A stretch of 64,000 nt of DNA from Verrucomicrobiota bacterium (GTDB lineage Bacteria > Verrucomicrobiota > Kiritimatiellia > JAKQHR01): assembly GCA_029557905.1 (NCBI GenBank), contig JAKQHR010000072.1, positions 23,109 through 87,108 of the forward strand. Direction: 5' to 3'. Positions 6,119 to 40,374 of the stretch are shown piece after piece. The number at the start of each line of letters is the position of its first letter. The first letter of the stretch is position 1. The position numbers and the translations under genes are program-made. The notes beneath the pieces are model-generated. The model saw nothing but the letters and a program-made list of their open reading frames with translations. It ran no database searches and was not told the origin of the DNA.

Positions 6119-8080
6119 ATGCTAGGTATCGGTCTTCAATTCATGATTACGATTTTTCAGTCTGTTGCGCATCGCCTGTTCGGCCCCTCAGGCGCTCTTC
6201 TGGATGCGAGGGTTCTGTGCGAAGAAAATCTGTGTGAGACCTGCTCTCTGACGGCGAGTTTTCTCCTCGCGCTCGGAGGAGACCGGGATGCGCTGCTGAG
6301 ACTGCAGCGGGCGGAAGGTTCCAATGAATATGCCGGATTTCTCCGCAGGCATCTGGGAACGGTTGAGGAGGAGATTCGCCGCGCCTGTGAATCTCCGGAT
6401 TTCAGGAAACGGCTTCAGGCGCTTGATAAGAATCCATCGGACACCAGCGCACTCCGGATGGTGTTCTTTCCCGAGGGCGCGGGACTGCCGGAAACCCGCG
6501 AAGAAAAAATCGAAGCTCTGCGCCAGAGGAGAACCATACGGATCACAAGCCTCAACCCCAGTCCCCTCTCCGATCCTGTCCGGCAAATGCTGTTCACATC
6601 CAATGTGCTTCTGACGGTGCCCCTGTCCGGCTCGTCGCTTGACGAAATCAACTGCACGGATGAGCTGAAGGCTCGCATTCGCAGTGTTGCAGGCGAAGAG
6701 CAGATGTACTGGTATGATCATCCCATCCCGGTCGGGGTGCGGCCAGAGGCCAATGAAATCCTTTATGGTCTGCGCGGGCTGGACACAGCGGCGGAATTTG
6801 AGCGCGCGCGGGGACTTATGGGCCCCGGAAAAATTGCCTGTGCGCTTTCAGTTTCTGTAACGCACAGGGGGCTTCAGGACATCGCCAGGCAGTACATCGA
6901 GTCAGAAATCCGCAGCGCGGGCGGTTTCCGCAATGTGGATGTTTATGTTTTCACCGAGGCTGACACCAGACGCCTGATCAGAGAAGTGCTCGTCCCGGCC
7001 GGCGGAGATGAGGGGTCCCTGAAAATATTCGGGGTCGATGGCGAATACGGAAGGCACTACAGTTTTCTCAAGGCTGTGGCGGCGCTTTGGCAGGCTGCCG
7101 CAGATCCCGGCGTCCAGGCCACTTTCAAGATCGATCTTGATCAGGTTTTTCCGCAGAAAGAGCTTGTGGAGCAAACGGGAAAATCGGCGTTTGAACACTT
7201 CAAGAGCCCGCTGTGGGGTGCGCACGGACAGGATGCGGACGGATTCCCGGTTGAACTGGGCATGATCGCCGGAGCGCTGGTCAACGAGCGGGACATTGAT
7301 CGGGGAATTTTCACTCCGGATGTCTCCTTCCCGGACGGCCCCGCCGCTCCTGATGAGCGCATCTTCTTCAGCCGAATGACGATGGCCCTTTCAACCCGGG
7401 CCGAGATGATGACGCGATACCGCCCGGACGGCATTGACGGAAAAACGGCATGCATTCAGCGCATCCACGTGACGGGAGGAACAAATGGAATCCGCATTGA
7501 CAGCCTCAGGAAACACCGTCCGTTCACGCCGTCTTTCATCGGCCGGGCCGAGGATCAGTCCTACCTGCTTTCCGTCCTGCTGGAAGAAGGTGAAAAACTC
7601 CGTTATGTTCACAAGGACGGACTGATCATGCGGCATGACAAGGAGGCCTTTGCCGGTGACGCCATTCGGGCCGCATCATTCGGGAACATCATTGGCGACT
7701 ATATCCGCACGCTCTATTTCTCAGAATATGCGCGCGTGCTTGATCCCAGGGGCCTTGAGCGGATCAAGAGCATGGTTGATCCCTTCACCGGCTGCTTCAT
7801 CACCCCCATTCCGGTCATCGTGGTCATGCTGCGGTTCTGCCTGAAGGCTGCCGGGTATTTTCTGGCGGGCGACGGGAAAACCGGAACTGAATTTGTTGAG
7901 GCAAACCATAACCGGCTGGAGCGCGCCATGGCCTTTGCCCGTGAGGAACTGAAGCAGCAGTATGAGCGGGAGCGGGAAGGCTGGAACCGGTATTACGAGC
8001 TGCTTGACCGGCTTCAGCATGAACCGTCGCTGAAAAAGCGCGCCGGCCAAATCATTCAAGACTGCCGTGTCCGGACTTGA
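6119..8080 (+). CDS. large hypothetical protein (653 aa), no recognisable family
   Basis: Long uninterrupted ORF with coherent coding composition. It is divergent from uvrB and convergent with the metalloprotease gene. No signal peptide, TM segment or catalytic motif that I can assign. Confidence 0.5.
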
Positions 8081-33432: not shown

Positions 33433-33858
33433 ATGAATAAGGGGAGTTTCGAAGAAGCGCTGCTGCAGCTGGCGGAGGAAAATCCGCAGTACGACCCCCA
33501 TGTCTACGGATTCATGCGGGAGGCGCTGGATTTCACCATCAAGCTGCTCAAAAAGCCGGCCGAAGGAGAGGCTCGCCATGTCACAGGCCGGGAACTGACA
33601 GACGGCATCAGGCAGTACGCCCTCAGGGAATTCGGCCCTCTTGCCAAGACTGTGCTGAATCACTGGGGAATATTCACAACGGAAGATTTCGGAAAAGTCG
33701 TCTTTCTGCTCATCAGCAAGGGAATTTTTGGAAAGAGTGAAAAGGATTCGGCTGCGGATTTCGCAAACGGCTACGATTTTGAAGACGCCTTCAGAACTCC
33801 TTTCAGGCCGCTGGCCGGCCGGGCGGAGAAATTCTTTGAGCAAAAGGAGCTGTTCTAA
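33433..33858 (+). CDS. hypothetical protein (141 aa), first gene of a translationally coupled trio
   Basis: No motif assigned. Its stop overlaps the next start (TAATG). Confidence 0.5.
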   Translation: MNKGSFEEALLQLAEENPQYDPHVYGFMREALDFTIKLLKKPAEGEARHVTGRELTDGIRQYALREFGPLAKTVLNHWGIFTTEDFGKVVFLLISKGIFGKSEKDSAADFANGYDFEDAFRTPFRPLAGRAEKFFEQKELF

Positions 33859-34238
33859 TGGAAAATCAGGAAAAGGATAAAGCCTCTCTTTTCTCGCAGC
33901 TTGTGGCGATGTTCAGCACATCGGCCATGCATCATCTCGGCAAGCTGGTGGACCCCGGCTCGGGCAAGGCCGAAGTCAATCTCGACGGCGCGCGCATGTC
34001 CATTGATCTGCTGACCATGCTTCAGGAGAAGACGGCCGGGAATCTGACGGAGGACGAGGACCGGATGCTGAAGGAGGTGCTGACCGTTCTCCGCCTGAAC
34101 TACGTGGAAACCGCAAATCAGTCCCCCCCGCCCGCTTCGTCTGCACCCGCGCAGGATGATAAGCCGAAGAGGGAAAAAGCTGAATCCGCGGCAGGGAAGG
34201 AAGAGAAAGAACCCCGCTTCCACAAGTCATACAGCTGA
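33858..34238 (+). CDS. DUF1844-like small protein
   Basis: MENQEKDKASLFSQLVAMFSTSAMHHLGKLVDP..GKAEVNLDGARMSIDLLTMLQEKTAGNLTEDE matches my recollection of the DUF1844 pattern. Lys/Glu-rich tail. Confidence 0.45.
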   Translation: MENQEKDKASLFSQLVAMFSTSAMHHLGKLVDPGSGKAEVNLDGARMSIDLLTMLQEKTAGNLTEDEDRMLKEVLTVLRLNYVETANQSPPPASSAPAQDDKPKREKAESAAGKEEKEPRFHKSYS

Positions 34239-34933
34239 TGGTCAGACTTATCAAATGGGCCGATGCCGCAGCCAGGGAGGTTTGGGCCTTCCTGAAGTTT
34301 GCAGGCCATCTTGCCCGGCCGTCATCGCATCCGGCCGTTCAAGTGAGCGGCCTGCTGAGCCTGGCCATCCTGATCGGCCTTCTGGCCTATATCTCCCGCG
34401 CCACAGTGCACTATGCATATATCCCGCCCGGTGAATCTGTGCTCCAACAGGCGGAACTGCACCTGCTGACCGCGGTCAGGGCGGAACCGGATGCCTTCAA
34501 ACCCAACATGCGGCTTCCGCATCGAAGCGAGATAAGAAGCTCGGGAGCCATCCATCTGAAGGCCTTCTTCCCCGAATATGACCTGATGCATGTGGATGAC
34601 CCCCGCGTCTGGTGGGAAAGCGACCATGATACAGATGACGTGGAGGATGATCATCTGGTGCACTACGCCATGGAAATTCCCTTGAAGCGCCTGATTGAGC
34701 TGGTGCATCGTGAAGGAGGAAAACTGAAGGTTCAGGACGCCTACCGCGCGGACGGGATCCATTACCCCAAATCACTTCACAAGGAAGGCAGGGCCATTGA
34801 TTTGACCTGCGAGAACATGACTCTCGAAAAGCTTGCCAAGCTTTGCTGGGCCGCCGATTTTGACTGGGTCTTCTATGAGGCTCCGAAGGGCGGAGGTCAT
34901 CACATCCATGCCTCCGTCCGCGCCGACCGGTGA
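34238..34933 (+). CDS. membrane-anchored Hedgehog N-terminal signalling (Hedge) domain-like protein, LAS/M15-type zinc peptidase fold
   Basis: KLKVQDAYRADGIHYPKSLHKEGRAIDLTCENMTLEKLAKLCWAADFDWVFYEAPKGGGHHIHASVRADR aligns closely with Sonic hedgehog [69 protein letters not shown], including the Zn ligands H, D and H. N-terminal TM helix VSGLLSLAILIGLLAYI. Confidence 0.6.
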   Translation: MVRLIKWADAAAREVWAFLKFAGHLARPSSHPAVQVSGLLSLAILIGLLAYISRATVHYAYIPPGESVLQQAELHLLTAVRAEPDAFKPNMRLPHRSEIRSSGAIHLKAFFPEYDLMHVDDPRVWWESDHDTDDVEDDHLVHYAMEIPLKRLIELVHREGGKLKVQDAYRADGIHYPKSLHKEGRAIDLTCENMTLEKLAKLCWAADFDWVFYEAPKGGGHHIHASVRADR

Positions 34934-35005: not shown

Positions 35006-36319
35006 ATGAATTCAAAGATGGCGGTTGCAATAGGTTCGGATCACGGCGGTTTTGATCTCAAGCAGGCGCTCATTCCATATCTCAAAGAGATCGGTTTCAC
35101 TGTGGTGGACTGCGGCATACGCGACAAGGCCACCGCCGACTATCCCCGCATTGCCTTCGGAGTCGCCCAGCGTGTGGCCTCCGGCCAGTGCGCACGGGGC
35201 ATTGTGATTGACGGCGCAGGCATCGGGTCGGCCATGACCGCCAACAAGGTTCGCGGCGTGCGGGCTGCCGCCTGCTACAGCGTTGCGCTGGCCAACAATG
35301 CCCGCGAGCACAATGACGCAAATGTCTTGACTCTCGGCTCGGGCCAGACCAGTCTGGAGGACGCTAAAGGCATTATAACCAAGTTTCTAGGCACCGATTG
35401 CACCGCGGCGCGGCATCTGCGCCGGGTGCGGATGATAGAGGAAGTCGAGCGCGGCGCGCTGAAAGTTCAGCCGCCGGAATCAGGAAAACAGGAGAACGAA
35501 GTGGACCTTTCACCTCAGGATGTCGAACGGATTGCACAACGGGTCAAACAGCTCATTTCCGGAGGCGGAAGCGCCGCGCCTTCGGGCAAAGCGGCGGGAG
35601 TCACCCCCACCCAACTCGCGGGTATGATTGATCATACCATTTTGAAGCCGGAAACCTCCCGCAGCGATGTTGATCGCATTTGCAAGGAAGCGCTGCAGTA
35701 CAAGTTCTGCTCGGTGTGCGTGAATCCGGTGAACGTGCCCCAGGTGGCCAAGGCGCTCAAGGGCTCAACCGTCAAGGTCTGCTGTGTGGTCGGATTCCCC
35801 CTGGGCGCGGCCGATCCCTCCATCAAGGCCCTTGAAACCCGCAAGGCCATCCGCGAAGGCGCGCAGGAAATTGACATGGTCATCAATGTCGGCGCCCTGA
35901 AAAGCGGAGACTACGACCTGGTTCTGCGCGATATCCGCGCCGTGGTTGAAGCCTGCCAGGAGCGGCGCATCCTTTCCAAAGTCATTCTGGAGACCAGCCT
36001 GCTGTCCGATGAGGAGAAGGTCAAGGCCTGCGAACTGAGCATGAAGGCCGGGGCCAGTTATGTGAAAACATCCACCGGCTTCAGCGGCGGCGGAGCCACG
36101 GCTGCGGACATCGCGCTGATGGCGGCGACGGTGGCCTCCAAGCGGCTGGGAGTGAAAGCCTCGGGCGGAGTCCGAAACTACCAGGACGCCATCAACATGA
36201 TCAACGCCGGCGCCACGCGCATCGGTGCCAGCAGCAGCGTGAACATTATTGAAGAAGCCAAGGCCGTTGCCGAAGGCAGGGAATATAAACCGGATTCGAA
36301 ATCGAAAGGAGCATACTAG
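35006..36319 (+). CDS. RpiB/LacAB-type sugar-phosphate isomerase fused to deoxyribose-phosphate aldolase (DeoC), with an inter-domain amphipathic helix and Gly/Ala/Pro linker
   Basis: The N-terminal half ([15 protein letters not shown]...[20 protein letters not shown]) is RpiB-like. The C-terminal half ([11 protein letters not shown]...CVVGFPLG...KVILET...VKTSTGF) is DeoC class I aldolase. Between them lies [27 protein letters not shown]. Confidence 0.75.
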
Positions 36320-36936
36320 TGGCTGAATTAAGAACATATGTGTTTCTGGACAGTCTGCAACCGCAGCACGCGTCCTTCCTTGCGACCGTGGCGAAGGGAT
36401 TTTTGCCGACGGCCGGACAGGCGTCGCTGTTCGTGGAGATTGCTCCGGGCATCGCGATCAACAGCGTGACCGACGTGGCCCTCAAGTCCACAAACGTGAC
36501 GCCGGGCATGCAGATCGTTGAACGCCAGTACGGCATGCTGGAAATCCATTCGGACTCCCAGGCCGACGTGCGTGAGGCCGGACGCGCCATCCTGCGCGAA
36601 CTGGACCTCAAGGAAGAGGACCGCATCAAACCCAAGGTGCTCACAAGTCAGGTCATCCGGAGCGTGTCCGACTATCAGACGCAGCTCATCAACCGCATGC
36701 GCCATGGAAACATGATTGTCCCCGGCGAAACCATGTATGTGATGGAAATCGCCCCGGCCGGGTATGCCGCGCTGGCGGCCAACGAGGCTGAAAAAGCGGC
36801 GCATATCAACATCCTGGAAGTGCGCGCAACCGGAAGCTTCGGGCGTGTATATCTGGGCGGCGATGAGAAGGATATTGACGTGGCCTACCGCGCGGCGGAG
36901 CAGGCTGTCGAAGCAATCGTGGGAAGAGAAGGTTGA
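36319..36936 (+). CDS. BMC-T shell protein, tandem circularly permuted BMC domains (EutS/PduU-like x2)
   Basis: Both halves show the permuted-BMC pattern (FVEIAPGIAINSVTDVALKS... and MYVMEIAPAGYAALAANEAEKAAHINILEV...GSFGRVYLGG), comparable to EutS [29 protein letters not shown]...FSGALVIYGS. Confidence 0.55.
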   Translation: MAELRTYVFLDSLQPQHASFLATVAKGFLPTAGQASLFVEIAPGIAINSVTDVALKSTNVTPGMQIVERQYGMLEIHSDSQADVREAGRAILRELDLKEEDRIKPKVLTSQVIRSVSDYQTQLINRMRHGNMIVPGETMYVMEIAPAGYAALAANEAEKAAHINILEVRATGSFGRVYLGGDEKDIDVAYRAAEQAVEAIVGREG

Positions 36937-36980: not shown

Positions 36981-37283
36981 ATGGCTGAAGCATTAGGTAT
37001 GATCGAAACACGGTCTTTCCCCGCGAGCGTGGAAGCGGCCGATGCAATGGTTAAGGCAGCGAAGGTTGAACTGGTCTCCTTTGAGAAGACCGGCGGAGGA
37101 TATACTTCCGTCGTGGTGCGGGGCGACGTGGCCGCTGTGAAAGCCGCCTGTGACGCCGGGCAGATCGCCGCCGGACGCGTGGGTGAAGTGGTGGCCGTGC
37201 ATGTGATTGCACGCCCGCATGCCAACGTGGACGCGGTCCTTCCGCTGGGACGCGCCACCGAGTCGTCCAAGGCCAAGAAATAA
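36981..37283 (+). CDS. BMC-H hexameric shell protein (PduA/CcmK/EutM family)
   Basis: [60 protein letters not shown] is the canonical BMC domain. Confidence 0.9.
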
Positions 37284-37343
37284 TTTAGCGCGCAAAGCGG
37301 CCGGGCGGTGATGCCGCCCGGCCGCCTTCAGGAGTTCCAAGGA

Positions 37344-37640
37344 ATGAATCTTGGCAAAGTGATAGGCACAGTGGTTGCCACGCGCAAGGAATCCAGCATG
37401 GACGGCTTGAAGTTCCTGCTGGTGCAGCATTTGGATCACGAACGCAAACCCACCGGTTCTCAGGTCGTCGCGGCGGACGCCGTCGGCGCCGGACCCGGGG
37501 AAATGGTTCTTGTCGCAACAGGCAGTTCCGCCCGCCAGACCGCGGCCACCGACAAACGTCCCTGTGACGCCGTCATCATGGCCATCGTGGACAGCTGGAG
37601 CGTGGACGGCGTGACCAAATACTGCAAGTCAGACGACTGA
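37344..37640 (+). CDS. BMC-P pentameric vertex protein (EutN/CcmL/PduN family), paralog 1
   Basis: [28 protein letters not shown]... The start is set at Met13 of ORF 37308 and is preceded by aagga. Confidence 0.8.
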
Positions 37641-37759
37641 TGGTCAGTCGCTGCGCGCGTGGATGATTCTCCCGGACGGACCTCACGGTTTCCGGTTCCG
37701 CGTTGATTTGCCGCCCGCCAAAGCGGGCAATGTGTTCAGTTATAGACGAAAGAAGGTAT

Positions 37760-39208
37760 GCTATGGCAAAACTGACCGATCAGGATATTGAAGCCATTGC
37801 CCAGAAAATAGTCAGCGATCTGAAAGGCGCAGCCCCTGCCCCGTCCGCATCTGTGGAAAGGACTCCGGCCGCCGCCGTCGCCGGGCCCGGCGTGTTTCAA
37901 ACACTGGATGAAGCCGTCGCCGCAGCAGGCAAAGCCCAGCCCGTTTTCGTCGCGCTTCCGATGGAAACGCGCGCAAAGATCATTGAAAATATCCGCAAGA
38001 GCATGATGGAGAATTCCGTCGCCCTGGCCAAGGCGGCACACGAGGAAACCGGGCTTGGGCGCTTTGAGGACAAGATTGTCAAGAATCAGCTGGTGACCAT
38101 GAAAACCCCCGGGATTGAAGATCTTCCTCCGAAGGCCTATACCGGGGATCACGGACTGACACTGGAGGAGCCGGCCCCGTTCGGCGTTATCGGCTCCATT
38201 ACTCCGACGACAAACCCGACCTCCACCATCATCTGCAACACAATCGGCATGATTGCCGCAGGGAACAGCGTCGTGTTCAACTGCCACCCGAGCGCCGTGA
38301 ACTGTTCGATGCAGACCATTGTCCTTCTCAACAAGGCCATTATGGAAGCCGGCGGACCTCCCAATGTAATCACGGCCGTTGCCAAACCGACGATCGAAAG
38401 TGCACAGGCCCTTATGAAGCACCCGGGCATCCGCCTGCTGGTGGTCACCGGCGGCGGCGGTGTGGTAAAGGCGGCCATGGAGAGCGGCAAACGCGCGATT
38501 TGCGCCGGACCCGGCAACCCGCCGGTTGTCGTGGACGAAACCGCGGATCTCGAACAGGCCGGCCGCGATATTGTTCTCGGCGCCTCGACTGACAACAACA
38601 TTATCTGCGCCGATGAAAAGGAAGTGCTGGTCGTCAGCAGCGTGGCCGACAAGCTGATCCAGGTCATGACGCGCAACAATGCCGTTCTGATCGACAAGAG
38701 CAAGCTTCAGGCGCTGGAGAAGGTCATCTTCAAGGAAATGGCCGGGCCGCGCGGCCATGCAACCGTCAACCGTGACTGCATAGGGAAGAATGCCGATGTC
38801 ATCCTCGCGAAGATGGGCATGAATGTGCCAAGCACAACGCGTCTCGGAATCATCGAGGTGGATCAGAACCATCCGCTGGTCTGGACTGAGCAGATGATGC
38901 CGATCCTCCCTATCGTGCGCGTTCCCGACGCCAGCTATGCGATTGATTTCGCAGTGGAGGTTGAAGGCGGATGCCGTCACACCTTTGTGATGCACTCGCG
39001 CAACATTGACAATCTCAGCAAAATGGCGAAGAAGTGCAATGCCAGCCTGTTTGTGAAAAACGGACGCTCCCAGACCGCATTCGGCCTCGGCGGCGAAGGC
39101 TACTGCTCGTTTACCATCGCCAGTCCCACCGGCGAAGGCATGACCGGCCCGCACAGCTTCTCGCGTTCGCGCCGCTGCATCCTTGTGGATCACTTCAGGA
39201 TTGTGTAA
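37760..39208 (+). CDS. CoA-acylating aldehyde dehydrogenase (PduP/EutE-like) with N-terminal encapsulation-type helix
   Basis: ALDH fold with catalytic Cys region (IICADEKEV...NNIICA) and no C-terminal extension. The N-terminus DQDIEAIAQKIVSDLKG is followed by an Ala/Pro-rich linker. The start is set at MAKLTDQ. Confidence 0.85.
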   Translation, partial: AMAKLTDQDIEAIAQKIVSDLKGAAPAPSASVERTPAAAVAGPGVFQTLDEAVAAAGKAQPVFVALPMETRAKIIENIRKSMMENSVALAKAAHEETGLGRFEDKIVKNQLVTMKTPGIEDLPPKAYTGDHGLTLEEPAPFGVIGSITPTTNPTSTIICNTIGMIAAGNSVVFNCHPSAVNCSMQTIVLLNKAIMEAGGPPNVITAVAKPTIESAQALMKHPGIRLLVVTGGGGVVKAAMESGKRAICAGPGNPPVVVDETADLEQAGRDIVLGASTDNNIICADEKEVLVVSSVADKLIQVMTRNNAVLIDKSKLQALEKVIFKEMAGPRGHATVNRDCIGKNADVILAKMGMNVPSTTRLGIIEVDQNHPLVWTEQMMPILPIVRVPDASYAIDFAVEVEGGCRHTFVMHSRNIDNLSKMAKKCNASLFVKNGRSQTAFGLGGEGYCSFTIASPTGEGMTGPHSFSRSRRCILVDHFRIV

Positions 39209-39819
39209 TGAAGAAATTCCCGGCCATGGCACTGGTGGAGTTCAACGGCATCGCCGTTGGCATGCATGCCACCGACGCCATGCTGAAGAAATCGCCCATC
39301 AATCTGCTGAAGTGCGGAACCATCAGTCGGGGGCATTATCTCACCGTTGTGGCCGGAACAACAGCCTCTGTGGACGAAGCCCTTGATGAAGGGCTCTTTC
39401 TGGCCGGAGACAACGTGGTGGACAGCACATTTCTCCCGGATATTGATACGCGTCTGCACAATGCGATACTGGGGCAGTCGCTTCCCATGAGTGCCGGCGC
39501 CATCGCCGTCATGGAAACGCCCACCGTCTGCTGCAATGTGCGGGCTGCCGAAATGGCGCTTAAGGGCACGCCGGTCGAACTGGTTGAAATCCGCCTGGGC
39601 GACTCACAGATGGGCGGACGCGGCATGTCAATTTTTCAGGGGGAGCTGCACGATATCGAGGCATCCATAGACATTGCGGTCGCCTATCTGCAGGGCAAAA
39701 ACATCGAGCCCGTGTATAAAATCCTCACGGCCCCGCATGAAGGAATGCTTGCGCAGATTGAAAACAGCACCAGGTTCCTCAACTCAACCAACCTGGAACT
39801 TGAAGGGGAGTTTGACTGA
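39208..39819 (+). CDS. BMC-T shell protein, tandem canonical BMC domains (PduT/CcmO-like), contains CC motif
   Basis: AMALVEFNGIAVGMHATDAMLKKSP and AIAVMETPTVCCNVRAAEMALKGTPVELVEI are two canonical BMC domains. The ATG overlaps the aldDH stop (TAATG). The start is set at MKKFPAM. Confidence 0.75.
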   Translation: MKKFPAMALVEFNGIAVGMHATDAMLKKSPINLLKCGTISRGHYLTVVAGTTASVDEALDEGLFLAGDNVVDSTFLPDIDTRLHNAILGQSLPMSAGAIAVMETPTVCCNVRAAEMALKGTPVELVEIRLGDSQMGGRGMSIFQGELHDIEASIDIAVAYLQGKNIEPVYKILTAPHEGMLAQIENSTRFLNSTNLELEGEFD

Positions 39820-39820
39820 A

Positions 39821-40108
39821 ATGAAACTGGGCAAAGTCATTGGACAGGTTGTTCCATGCGAGGTTTACGAGGGACTCGAAACCGTTCCCATGCTCTGGGT
39901 GCAGCCGCTCGACAAGAAGGGCCATCCCAAGGGCGCAGCGATCGTCTGTGCGGATTCCACCCGCATGGCGGGTCCCGGGGAGCTGATCTACTATGAGGGC
40001 GGACGGGAAGCCGCAATGACACTGGATCCGGTTTTTGTTCCTGTTGACCATGCCATTGTCGGCATCGTGGACGACATGGCGCTGGACCAGGGTGGAGGTG
40101 ACGCATGA
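39821..40108 (+). CDS. BMC-P pentameric vertex protein, paralog 2
   Basis: MKLGKVIGQVVPCEVYEGLETVPMLWVQPLD... matches the EutN/CcmL fold pattern. The start is set at the internal Met of ORF 39674. Confidence 0.8.
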   Translation: MKLGKVIGQVVPCEVYEGLETVPMLWVQPLDKKGHPKGAAIVCADSTRMAGPGELIYYEGGREAAMTLDPVFVPVDHAIVGIVDDMALDQGGGDA

Positions 40109-40374
40109 TCGCAGGCAGAGTGACCGGCCATATCTTCTCCACGATCAACCATCCCTTCTATGACGGGAAGCGCATGCTTGTCGTCGAGAAGATTGACGAA
40201 AACGGGAAGGCGCTGAACGATTATGTCATTGCCGTGGACACCGTGGATGCCGGACCCGGCGACAAGGTTCTCATCGTGGATGAGGGCAACGGAGCGCGCC
40301 AGATTCTTCAGTCCTCCGACGGCCCCGTTCGCTCCGTGATTGTCGGGATCATTGATCAGATCACAGTGGATTGA
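40105..40374 (+). CDS. BMC-P pentameric vertex protein, paralog 3
   Basis: MIAGRVTGHIFSTINHPFYDGKRMLVVEKIDENG...VDTVDAGPGDKVLIVDEGNGAR is the EutN/PduN pattern. Overlaps paralog 2 by 4 nt. Confidence 0.8.
   Translation: MIAGRVTGHIFSTINHPFYDGKRMLVVEKIDENGKALNDYVIAVDTVDAGPGDKVLIVDEGNGARQILQSSDGPVRSVIVGIIDQITVD

Follow-up and report, generated by a model that had tools for sequence, protein, structure and literature searches.

What is the short segment that joins the two domains of an RpiB-DeoC fusion protein: a plain linker, or a signal that takes the enzyme into a bacterial microcompartment (BMC)? This question is raised by a gene at positions 35006 to 36319 on the forward strand of a 64,000-nucleotide stretch from a Verrucomicrobiota bacterium (contig JAKQHR010000072.1), which is referred to here as the window. 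Its open reading frame (ORF) spans 437 aa; public gene calls begin at the ATG at 35018 and give 433 aa. An initial annotation of the locus proposed that an encapsulation peptide (EP) lies between the RpiB and DeoC domains. EPs have been described as amphipathic helices of 15 to 18 aa attached to a poorly conserved linker of small or hydrophilic residues (Aussignargues 2015; PMC4594438). Our computational results indicate that the interdomain helix is probably the putative EP of the DeoC enzyme (DERA) of a sugar-phosphate-utilizing (SPU) microcompartment.

Pfam recognizes LacAB_rpiB at aa 7 to 144 (E = 1.6e-45) and DeoC at aa 207 to 412 (E = 7.9e-17). We delimited an RpiB-like domain at 35024 to 35452 (aa 7 to 149) and a class I aldolase (DeoC/DERA) domain at 35606 to 36271 (aa 201 to 422), both on the plus strand. 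Since solved RpiB chains, which align to aa 3 to 149, end near residue 149 and solved DERA chains begin near residue 203, about 53 residues lie outside both folds. On the same strand, this region comprises an N-side linker (35453 to 35503; aa 150 to 166), a 19-residue amphipathic helix that we regard as the putative EP (35504 to 35560; aa 167 to 185), and a C-side linker rich in Gly, Ala, Ser, and Pro (35561 to 35605; aa 186 to 200). An AlphaFold2 model run on a 58-sequence alignment (mean pLDDT, 89.5) contains one helix between the domains, at aa 170 to 186 (block pLDDT of about 76). It is flanked by low-confidence stretches, with a pLDDT of 54 to 68 at aa 150 to 169 and below 50 at aa 186 to 195. 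The four strings quoted in the initial annotation are all in place, namely, the end of the RpiB domain at aa 139 to 148, the helix at aa 172 to 184 (nucleotides 35519 to 35557), the linker at aa 185 to 198, and the start of the aldolase domain.

The Eisenberg hydrophobic moment of the 15 residues from 171 to 185 is 0.72, the highest in the whole protein and a value matched by 1% of shuffled helix sequences. In unfused SPU enzymes and in the experimentally validated EutC1-19, the N-terminal helices score 0.45 to 0.72; thus, the interdomain helix matches terminal EPs in amphipathicity. Its composition (32% hydrophobic residues and 45.5% K/R/D/E/Q/N) is likewise close to that of the dehydrogenase EPs tabulated in PMC4594438 (35.8% and 45.7%, respectively).

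Conservation sets the helix apart from its surroundings. A search of 5.8 billion proteins gave 8000 matches at an E value of 1e-10 or better; the 120 listed are 59 to 100% identical to the window protein, and all of them contain both domains. In an alignment of 121 fusions, mean pairwise identity is 0.67 for the RpiB domain, 0.73 for the DeoC domain, and 0.56 for the helix block (aa 167 to 185), which has no indels. The corresponding values are 0.14 for the N-side linker, which varies in length from 9 to 30 aa and is 45% G/A/S/P, and 0.19 for the C-side linker, which varies from 10 to 18 aa and is 66% G/A/S/P. Positions D172 and V180 of the helix are invariant, R179 and I176 are nearly so, and the hydrophobic face is always hydrophobic; the consensus reads V-D-L-S-P-x-D-I-E-R-I-A-x-R-V-K-Q-L-L. 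Judged from this alignment, purifying selection within the interdomain segment acts on the helix only.

We then compared fused and unfused relatives. When grouped at 90% identity, the fusions found here fall into more than 120 clusters, drawn from at least eight groups of phylum rank. According to a scan of one genome per species, fused genes occur in Lentisphaerae, Verrucomicrobiota, Acidobacteriota, Neomarinimicrobiota, Krumholzibacteriota, Gammaproteobacteria, Planctomycetaceae, and others, and in 16 of the 16 fused loci whose contig extends past the gene, a shell and dehydrogenase operon follows directly downstream in the order seen in the window. A metagenome scan gave few close fusions among the matches listed. 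The window's own fusion protein is present in identical form on 23 metagenomic contigs. Four unfused loci have the window's gene order with rpiB and deoC adjacent, one in Holophagaceae (L019), two in Acidimicrobiia (L051 and L071), and one in Actinomycetota (L078). In all four, both the RpiB and the DeoC products open with an amphipathic helix and a linker; in L019, the RPI begins MDPQKVEKLVSEVVREVL and the DERA begins MDEKRLVDLITQEVLKAI. The helix of the fusion stands where unfused SPU DeoC has its N-terminal helix. The fused RpiB, by comparison, has a median of 6 residues ahead of its domain, and in the window no N-terminal extension is possible, as no start codon occurs between the gene and an in-frame stop located 24 codons upstream. 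The short N terminus and the upstream stop therefore indicate that the fusion retained the helix of DeoC and lost that of RpiB. Housekeeping DeoC genes (220 to 240 aa) have neither an extension nor shell genes nearby.

These comparisons bear out what the initial annotation had seen in the letters of the gene. An amphipathic helix followed by a flexible Gly/Ala/Pro linker is indeed present, both in the structural model and in composition; the helix resembles terminal EPs; and because it is conserved among the orthologous fusions while its flanks are not, the segment cannot be set aside as one that orthologs fail to share. The unfused partners, each with a helix of its own, place the segment at the DeoC N terminus. 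Conservation, amphipathicity, and unfused comparators thus all favor the EP reading.

Not all fusions are built alike. The N-terminal extension of the unfused DeoC of L077 is a sequence homolog of the interdomain region of fused L028, with a helix and a Cys-rich module in both. In a neighbor-joining tree of DeoC domains, L028 is placed apart from the main fused clade, a hint that fusion may have occurred more than once; because this tree lacks bootstrap support and is missing some of the fused loci, independent fusions are suggestive only. A third fusion type, L115, joins the domains through a 26-residue Ala/Pro linker with no interdomain helix; therefore, the helix is not required merely for joining the domains. 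One candidate comparator was rejected: P0121, a protein of 273 aa that opens with the helix motif, is a fusion whose gene call was cut short rather than an unfused DeoC, since it begins with MIRDYEKN, the motif that closes the RpiB domain (compare L007).

If the helix is a compartment tag, it should be compared with the other tag encoded in the operon. The aldehyde dehydrogenase (481 aa; 37763 to 39208, plus strand) opens with MAKLTDQDIEAIAQKIVSDL, followed by KGAAPAPSAS. Its N-terminal EP, KLTDQDIEAIAQKIVSDL, is encoded at 37769 to 37822 on the plus strand ahead of an Ala/Pro linker, and its motif is common to the fusion helix. The consensus of 120 dehydrogenase homologs is M-A-R-L-T-D-Q-D-I-E-A-I-A-R-R-I-A-A-D-L, again followed by an Ala/Pro linker. 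Aligned in register, the fusion helix and this EP are identical at 7 of 18 residues. When a profile of the helix was run against 900 six-frame segments of the window, the best non-self match was the dehydrogenase N terminus (E = 0.07); in the reverse search, with the dehydrogenase EP against the same 900 segments, the best match was the fusion helix (E = 0.18). Comparison of the two by hhalign gave a P value of 1e-4. Each value alone is weak, yet the reciprocity and the position are as would be expected for two tags of one compartment.

The DNA that encodes the N-side linker adds a second layer. Two columns stand out in this variable region: column 163, which is Glu or Gly in 102 of the 121 fusions, and column 166, which is Val, Leu, or Met in 105 of 121. 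The alternation of Glu and Gly at column 163 is odd for a protein and would be explained by GAG/GGA, which forms the core of Shine-Dalgarno (SD) motifs. In the window, AGGAG at 35490 to 35494 is followed, after a 6-nt spacer, by an in-frame GTG at 35501 to 35503 (Val166), one codon ahead of the D-L-S that opens the helix; we regard 35490 to 35503 (plus strand) as a candidate internal translation-initiation region. In the DNA of relatives, Val at this site is encoded by GTG in 11 of 11 cases (gene-wide, the GTG share of Val codons is 0.12 to 0.68) and Leu by TTG in 4 of 4 (gene-wide TTG share, 0 to 0.18), and one locus has ATG. The residues just upstream vary widely (QENE, EEEN, KETA, QGTN, SGGN, KERG, KENA, KEAN, REVR, and GGSP), yet a purine-rich SD-like core is retained shortly before the start codon despite this variation (AAGGAG, GGAGG, or similar; AAGGA in L088). 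Five loci (L171 to L175) were picked by protein sequence before their DNA was seen, and all five have both the SD motif and the start codon. Overall, 14 of 34 fusions have, within the 12 codons before the helix, a start codon preceded by an SD motif at the proper distance, against 5.7% per gene expected from the rate within the domains; the loci with an internal start include close relatives (the window and L085; L005 and L090). Messenger RNA folding is weaker at the internal start than in the rest of the gene (z = 2.06 in the window; mean z = 0.98 over 13 loci, p = 6.5e-4), an effect to which the purine-rich linker could also contribute. At the 5' start of the full-length ORF (35006 to 35020 and its equivalents in L085 to L090 and L171 to L175), no SD motif was found in 11 of 12 loci. 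Most of the downstream shell genes of the operon carry one. The internal start is absent, and the helix kept, in fused lineages L002, L004, L006, L013, and L091.

The simplest interpretation of this pattern is that a functional internal initiation site may have been retained from the ancestral deoC. The conserved SD motif and GTG therefore suggest that a DeoC isoform of 272 aa is probably made as well. Such a product would carry the EP at its N terminus; judged from nucleotide conservation, we consider the case for its co-production with the full-length protein evenly balanced. Given the conserved start, the peptide may serve the short DeoC as a conventional N-terminal tag, either in addition to its internal role or as its main function. 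In the published accounts of SPU fusions and EPs, we found no mention of an internal start site.

Taken as an EP, the helix suggests the following course of events. In the ancestral state, rpiB and deoC would have been adjacent, and the product of each would have had an N-terminal amphipathic helix and a flexible linker. In the window's lineage, the two genes would then have merged into one reading frame, the RpiB part losing its own helix and the DeoC helix ending up between the two domains, flanked by disordered linkers. Flexible arms of about 15 residues on both sides could let the helix act from this internal position in the full-length protein. Its hydrophobic face (V173, I176, A177, V180, L183, and I184) would dock on the lumenal side of the shell, and/or the helix would bundle with the very similar N-terminal helix of the dehydrogenase. 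A single tag would thereby carry the RpiB and DeoC domains together into the compartment, along with the dehydrogenase that consumes the acetaldehyde made by DeoC.

Several observations count against the EP reading. Searches with the helix profile failed to recover the N-terminal helices of unfused DeoC and RpiB, none of which scored above 2.5 bits; therefore, homology for the main fused clade rests on position, and direct homology is limited to L028 and L077. The similarity between the helix and the dehydrogenase EP is sub-significant in each single search, and the two helices show no covariation within loci (21.7 for the same locus versus 20.6 for different loci; permutation p = 0.10). The terminal location that classically characterizes EPs is not found in the full-length product, in which the helix occupies aa 167 to 185 of 437, and should the internal start be in use, the short isoform could be the sole product on which the helix acts.

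Four other explanations must be weighed. The one that survives best, although we hold it to be doubtful, is that the helix is mainly an element of cargo-cargo condensation or oligomerization, which would form bundles with other copies of itself and with the dehydrogenase helix instead of binding the shell. The motif common to the dehydrogenase N terminus is in line with such a role, as is the tendency of EP-bearing enzymes to aggregate; SPU6 DERA is soluble once its extension is removed. The lack of covariation between the two helices argues against it. Because condensation is already among the functions of EPs, this explanation is not exclusive of the EP reading and does not truly compete with it.

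Somewhat less probable, and in our view unlikely, is that the tag works only at the N terminus of the short DeoC isoform, the helix of the full-length protein being part of a linker and the RpiB product entering the compartment by binding DeoC. The SD motif and start codon conserved one codon before the helix, the weak mRNA structure there, and the missing SD motif at the 5' start in nearly all loci speak for this possibility. So does the finding that the RPI-DERA complex forms without the extension, reported by Dwyer, Sutter & Kerfeld 2024 (PMC11585597). Yet the reading frame across the junction is open in the >120 sequence clusters, from many phyla; therefore, the full-length protein is itself selected, necessarily with the helix on flexible linkers. 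In addition, the five lineages without an internal start keep the helix.

There is little to recommend the view that the helix serves DeoC in structure or regulation, packed on the barrel or on RpiB, and is not a targeting signal. The 15-residue G/A/S/P linker, variable in length and modeled at a pLDDT below 50, separates it from DeoC; the helix lies outside all solved DERA folds; and the two beta-strands and Cys-rich module of other SPU DERA extensions are absent here. Least credible of all is a neutral, functionless relic of the fusion event: the N-side linker does resemble a translated former intergenic region in its variable length and sequence, but the helix, at 56% identity with no indels and strict hydrophobic positions across sequences about 60% identical overall, does not, and the helix-less L115 shows that a plain linker is enough. 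We therefore retain the encapsulation reading as the probable one, with binding to shell or cargo as its presumed mode of action.

The two domains that the helix would deliver differ in their catalytic outfit. In the aldolase domain, the class I residues D290, K354, and K384 (D102, K167, and K201 in Escherichia coli, the numbering being mapped by motif) are present and invariant, and the catalytic motifs, GVKASGG included, are identical to those of solved DERAs in the alignment. The RpiB domain, in contrast to those of E. coli and C. thermocellum, has Asp69 (35210 to 35212) at the position of the catalytic Cys and Ala71 (35216 to 35218) at that of the Thr; the segment around Asp69 aligns to GIVICGTGLGIS of solved RpiB, and D69 is invariant in 58 fusions. 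This domain thus lacks the catalytic Cys of the ICGTG motif (Cys66 in E. coli) that marks a competent isomerase. According to PMC11585597, Asp replaces the catalytic Cys in all SPU RPIs, which have little isomerase activity.

The fusion gene is the first gene of an operon, all on the plus strand. Next come a CsoS1D-like tandem-domain BMC-T shell protein (36319 to 36936), with a GTG start after AAGGAG, a BMC-H shell protein (36981 to 37283), and then a BMC-P pentamer protein (37344 to 37640); Pfam recognizes the shell proteins of the operon and its aldehyde dehydrogenase alike. The aldehyde dehydrogenase is followed by a second BMC-T protein with two BMC domains (39208 to 39819) and, at the operon end, two more BMC-P genes within 39821 to 40374 (at about 39821 to 40108 and 40105 to 40374). 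Three of these genes are over-extended by their maximal ORFs: the first BMC-P ORF begins at 37308, but public calls and homologs begin at 37344; that of the dehydrogenase begins at a TTG at 37703, but its homologs begin at the ATG at 37763 (MAKLTDQ...); and that of the second BMC-T begins at 39034, but the public start is at 39208. Beyond the last BMC-P gene (40374) lies a convergent AcrB-type gene. The SPU marker set is complete, with a PF01791 aldolase, a PF02502 RpiB-type protein, and an aldehyde dehydrogenase next to BMC-H, BMC-T, and BMC-P genes, and the operon is of the SPU microcompartment type. Its fusion gene, its CsoS1D-like BMC-T, and its three BMC-P genes point to the SPU3 subtype. 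The closest homolog of the dehydrogenase (93% identity) is labeled Kiritimatiellia.

Just upstream of the fusion gene, a plus-strand gene at 34238 to 34933 gives a match to the Hedgehog N-terminal signaling domain (PF01085; E = 4.8e-12; profile positions 66 to 161 of 161), preceded by a DUF1844 gene at 33858 to 34238 on the same strand. Both are kept beside the fusion in the identical metagenomic contigs and in L085, and not in more distant fused loci.

The N-terminal region of DeoC varies considerably among SPU loci. Many SPU DeoC extensions have a Cys-rich module (C..CxxCxxC...C), followed by "v..aGAxRi," between the helix and the aldolase domain. It is carried by fused L011 (at about 6500 to 6700), L023, L009, L010, and L094 (Neomarinimicrobiota type) and L028 and by unfused L017, L020, L029, L047, L050, and L077, and its motif may represent a metal or Fe-S site. 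The window protein lacks the module, of which we saw no discussion in PMC11585597. Another module of about 45 aa (ITEaDar.l..G..l.lppGaivTPlArd.a..r.i.iv), with no Pfam match, stands ahead of RpiB in Acidobacteriota-type loci (L024, L026, L027, L054, L077, L079, and L021) and also in fusions L028 and L115. Members of this DeoC subfamily are joined to other N-terminal partners too, such as flavoprotein-like PF02441, purine/uridine phosphorylase PF01048, or regions of about 200 aa without a Pfam match (proteins P0123, P0128, P0137, P0147, P0150, and P0165; loci L042 and L052). To judge from these architectures, the DeoC N terminus is evidently a fusion hot spot. A DeoC with an N-terminal extension is also encoded on a Promethearchaeota (Asgard) contig (L066, 10001 to 10693), in agreement with a 2025 preprint (PMC12747264) on archaeal SPU-like microcompartments.

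How does the window protein compare with known systems? An aldolase-isomerase fusion was first noted in Marinimicrobia (Axen 2014; PMC4207490). Dwyer, Sutter & Kerfeld 2024 described an RPI-DERA fusion in 20 SPU3 loci, an N-terminal amphipathic extension on all SPU DERAs, and an N-terminal EP on SPU RPIs, and they proposed that the "linker" of the fusion is an EP. In the same work, SPU6 DERA was solubilized by deletion of its extension, and the truncated DERA still bound RPI. The SPU3 chimera and the window protein have the same domain order, the same operon type (CsoS1D-like BMC-T, BMC-H, three BMC-P genes, and dehydrogenase), and the same Cys-to-Asp change. They differ in the number of known cases, 20 loci there against the more than 120 clusters counted here, and in the extension, which comprises a helix and two beta-strands in the published description and a helix with a G/A/P linker only in the window protein. 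The available text of that paper contains no mention that we could find of a resemblance to the dehydrogenase EP, of the helix lost from RPI, or of the internal start. The EP reading of the linker therefore restates, correctly, a hypothesis already in print, with a close experimental precedent in the Hodarchaeales. There, the EPs predicted in SPU-like compartments are either terminal or placed "as linkers between two domains," and cargo enzymes with the EP deleted, Flav+DERA being one of four, are reported to lose recruitment to the shell (PMC12747264). As in the window, the Hodarchaeales case involves an SPU-like compartment and a DERA with a fused N-terminal partner, but this partner is a flavoprotein instead of RpiB and the lineage is archaeal. 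No relevant literature was found under the phrase "internal encapsulation peptide"; the precedents came from work specific to SPU compartments. The "unusual packaging solution" suggested in the initial annotation is therefore less unusual than it seemed there. Since the flagged feature is already in the literature, its novelty is low, and the residual interest lies in the conserved internal start and in the protein as a test of whether EP position matters.

Relative to terminal EPs (those of PduP, PduD, EutC, and aldehyde dehydrogenases; PMC4594438), the window helix has the same length, amphipathicity, and composition and a similarly poorly conserved linker of small or hydrophilic residues; it is likewise absent from non-compartment homologs and encoded beside shell genes. 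The difference is its location between two folded domains, with a flexible linker on both sides. In PMC4594438, the importance of EP location was raised as a matter for experiment, and a natural, widely conserved cargo with its tag between folded domains offers a ready test case. It could also serve as a design template for bringing two enzymes into engineered microcompartments by one tag. If the two-product reading is true, the same helix would tag the full-length protein from within and the short isoform from its N terminus, and if the internal start is used, current annotations of SPU loci miss a protein product.

A parallel for two products is found in CcmM of beta-carboxysomes, whose isoforms M58 and M35 are made from one gene by an internal ribosome-binding site (PMC8580825). 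The proteins are unrelated, and use of the internal start in the fusion is deduced from sequence conservation only. Yet in both, the N-terminal domain has lost catalytic motifs (in the fusion, an RpiB domain without its catalytic Cys), and an internal site lies ahead of the C-terminal part. By analogy with M58 and M35, a two-product gene might let the cell adjust how much of the catalytically altered RpiB domain is present per aldolase within the compartment, an idea to which we give even weight for and against. If the internal start is indeed used, SPU microcompartments would be the second case, after CcmM, in which isoforms from one gene control microcompartment cargo.

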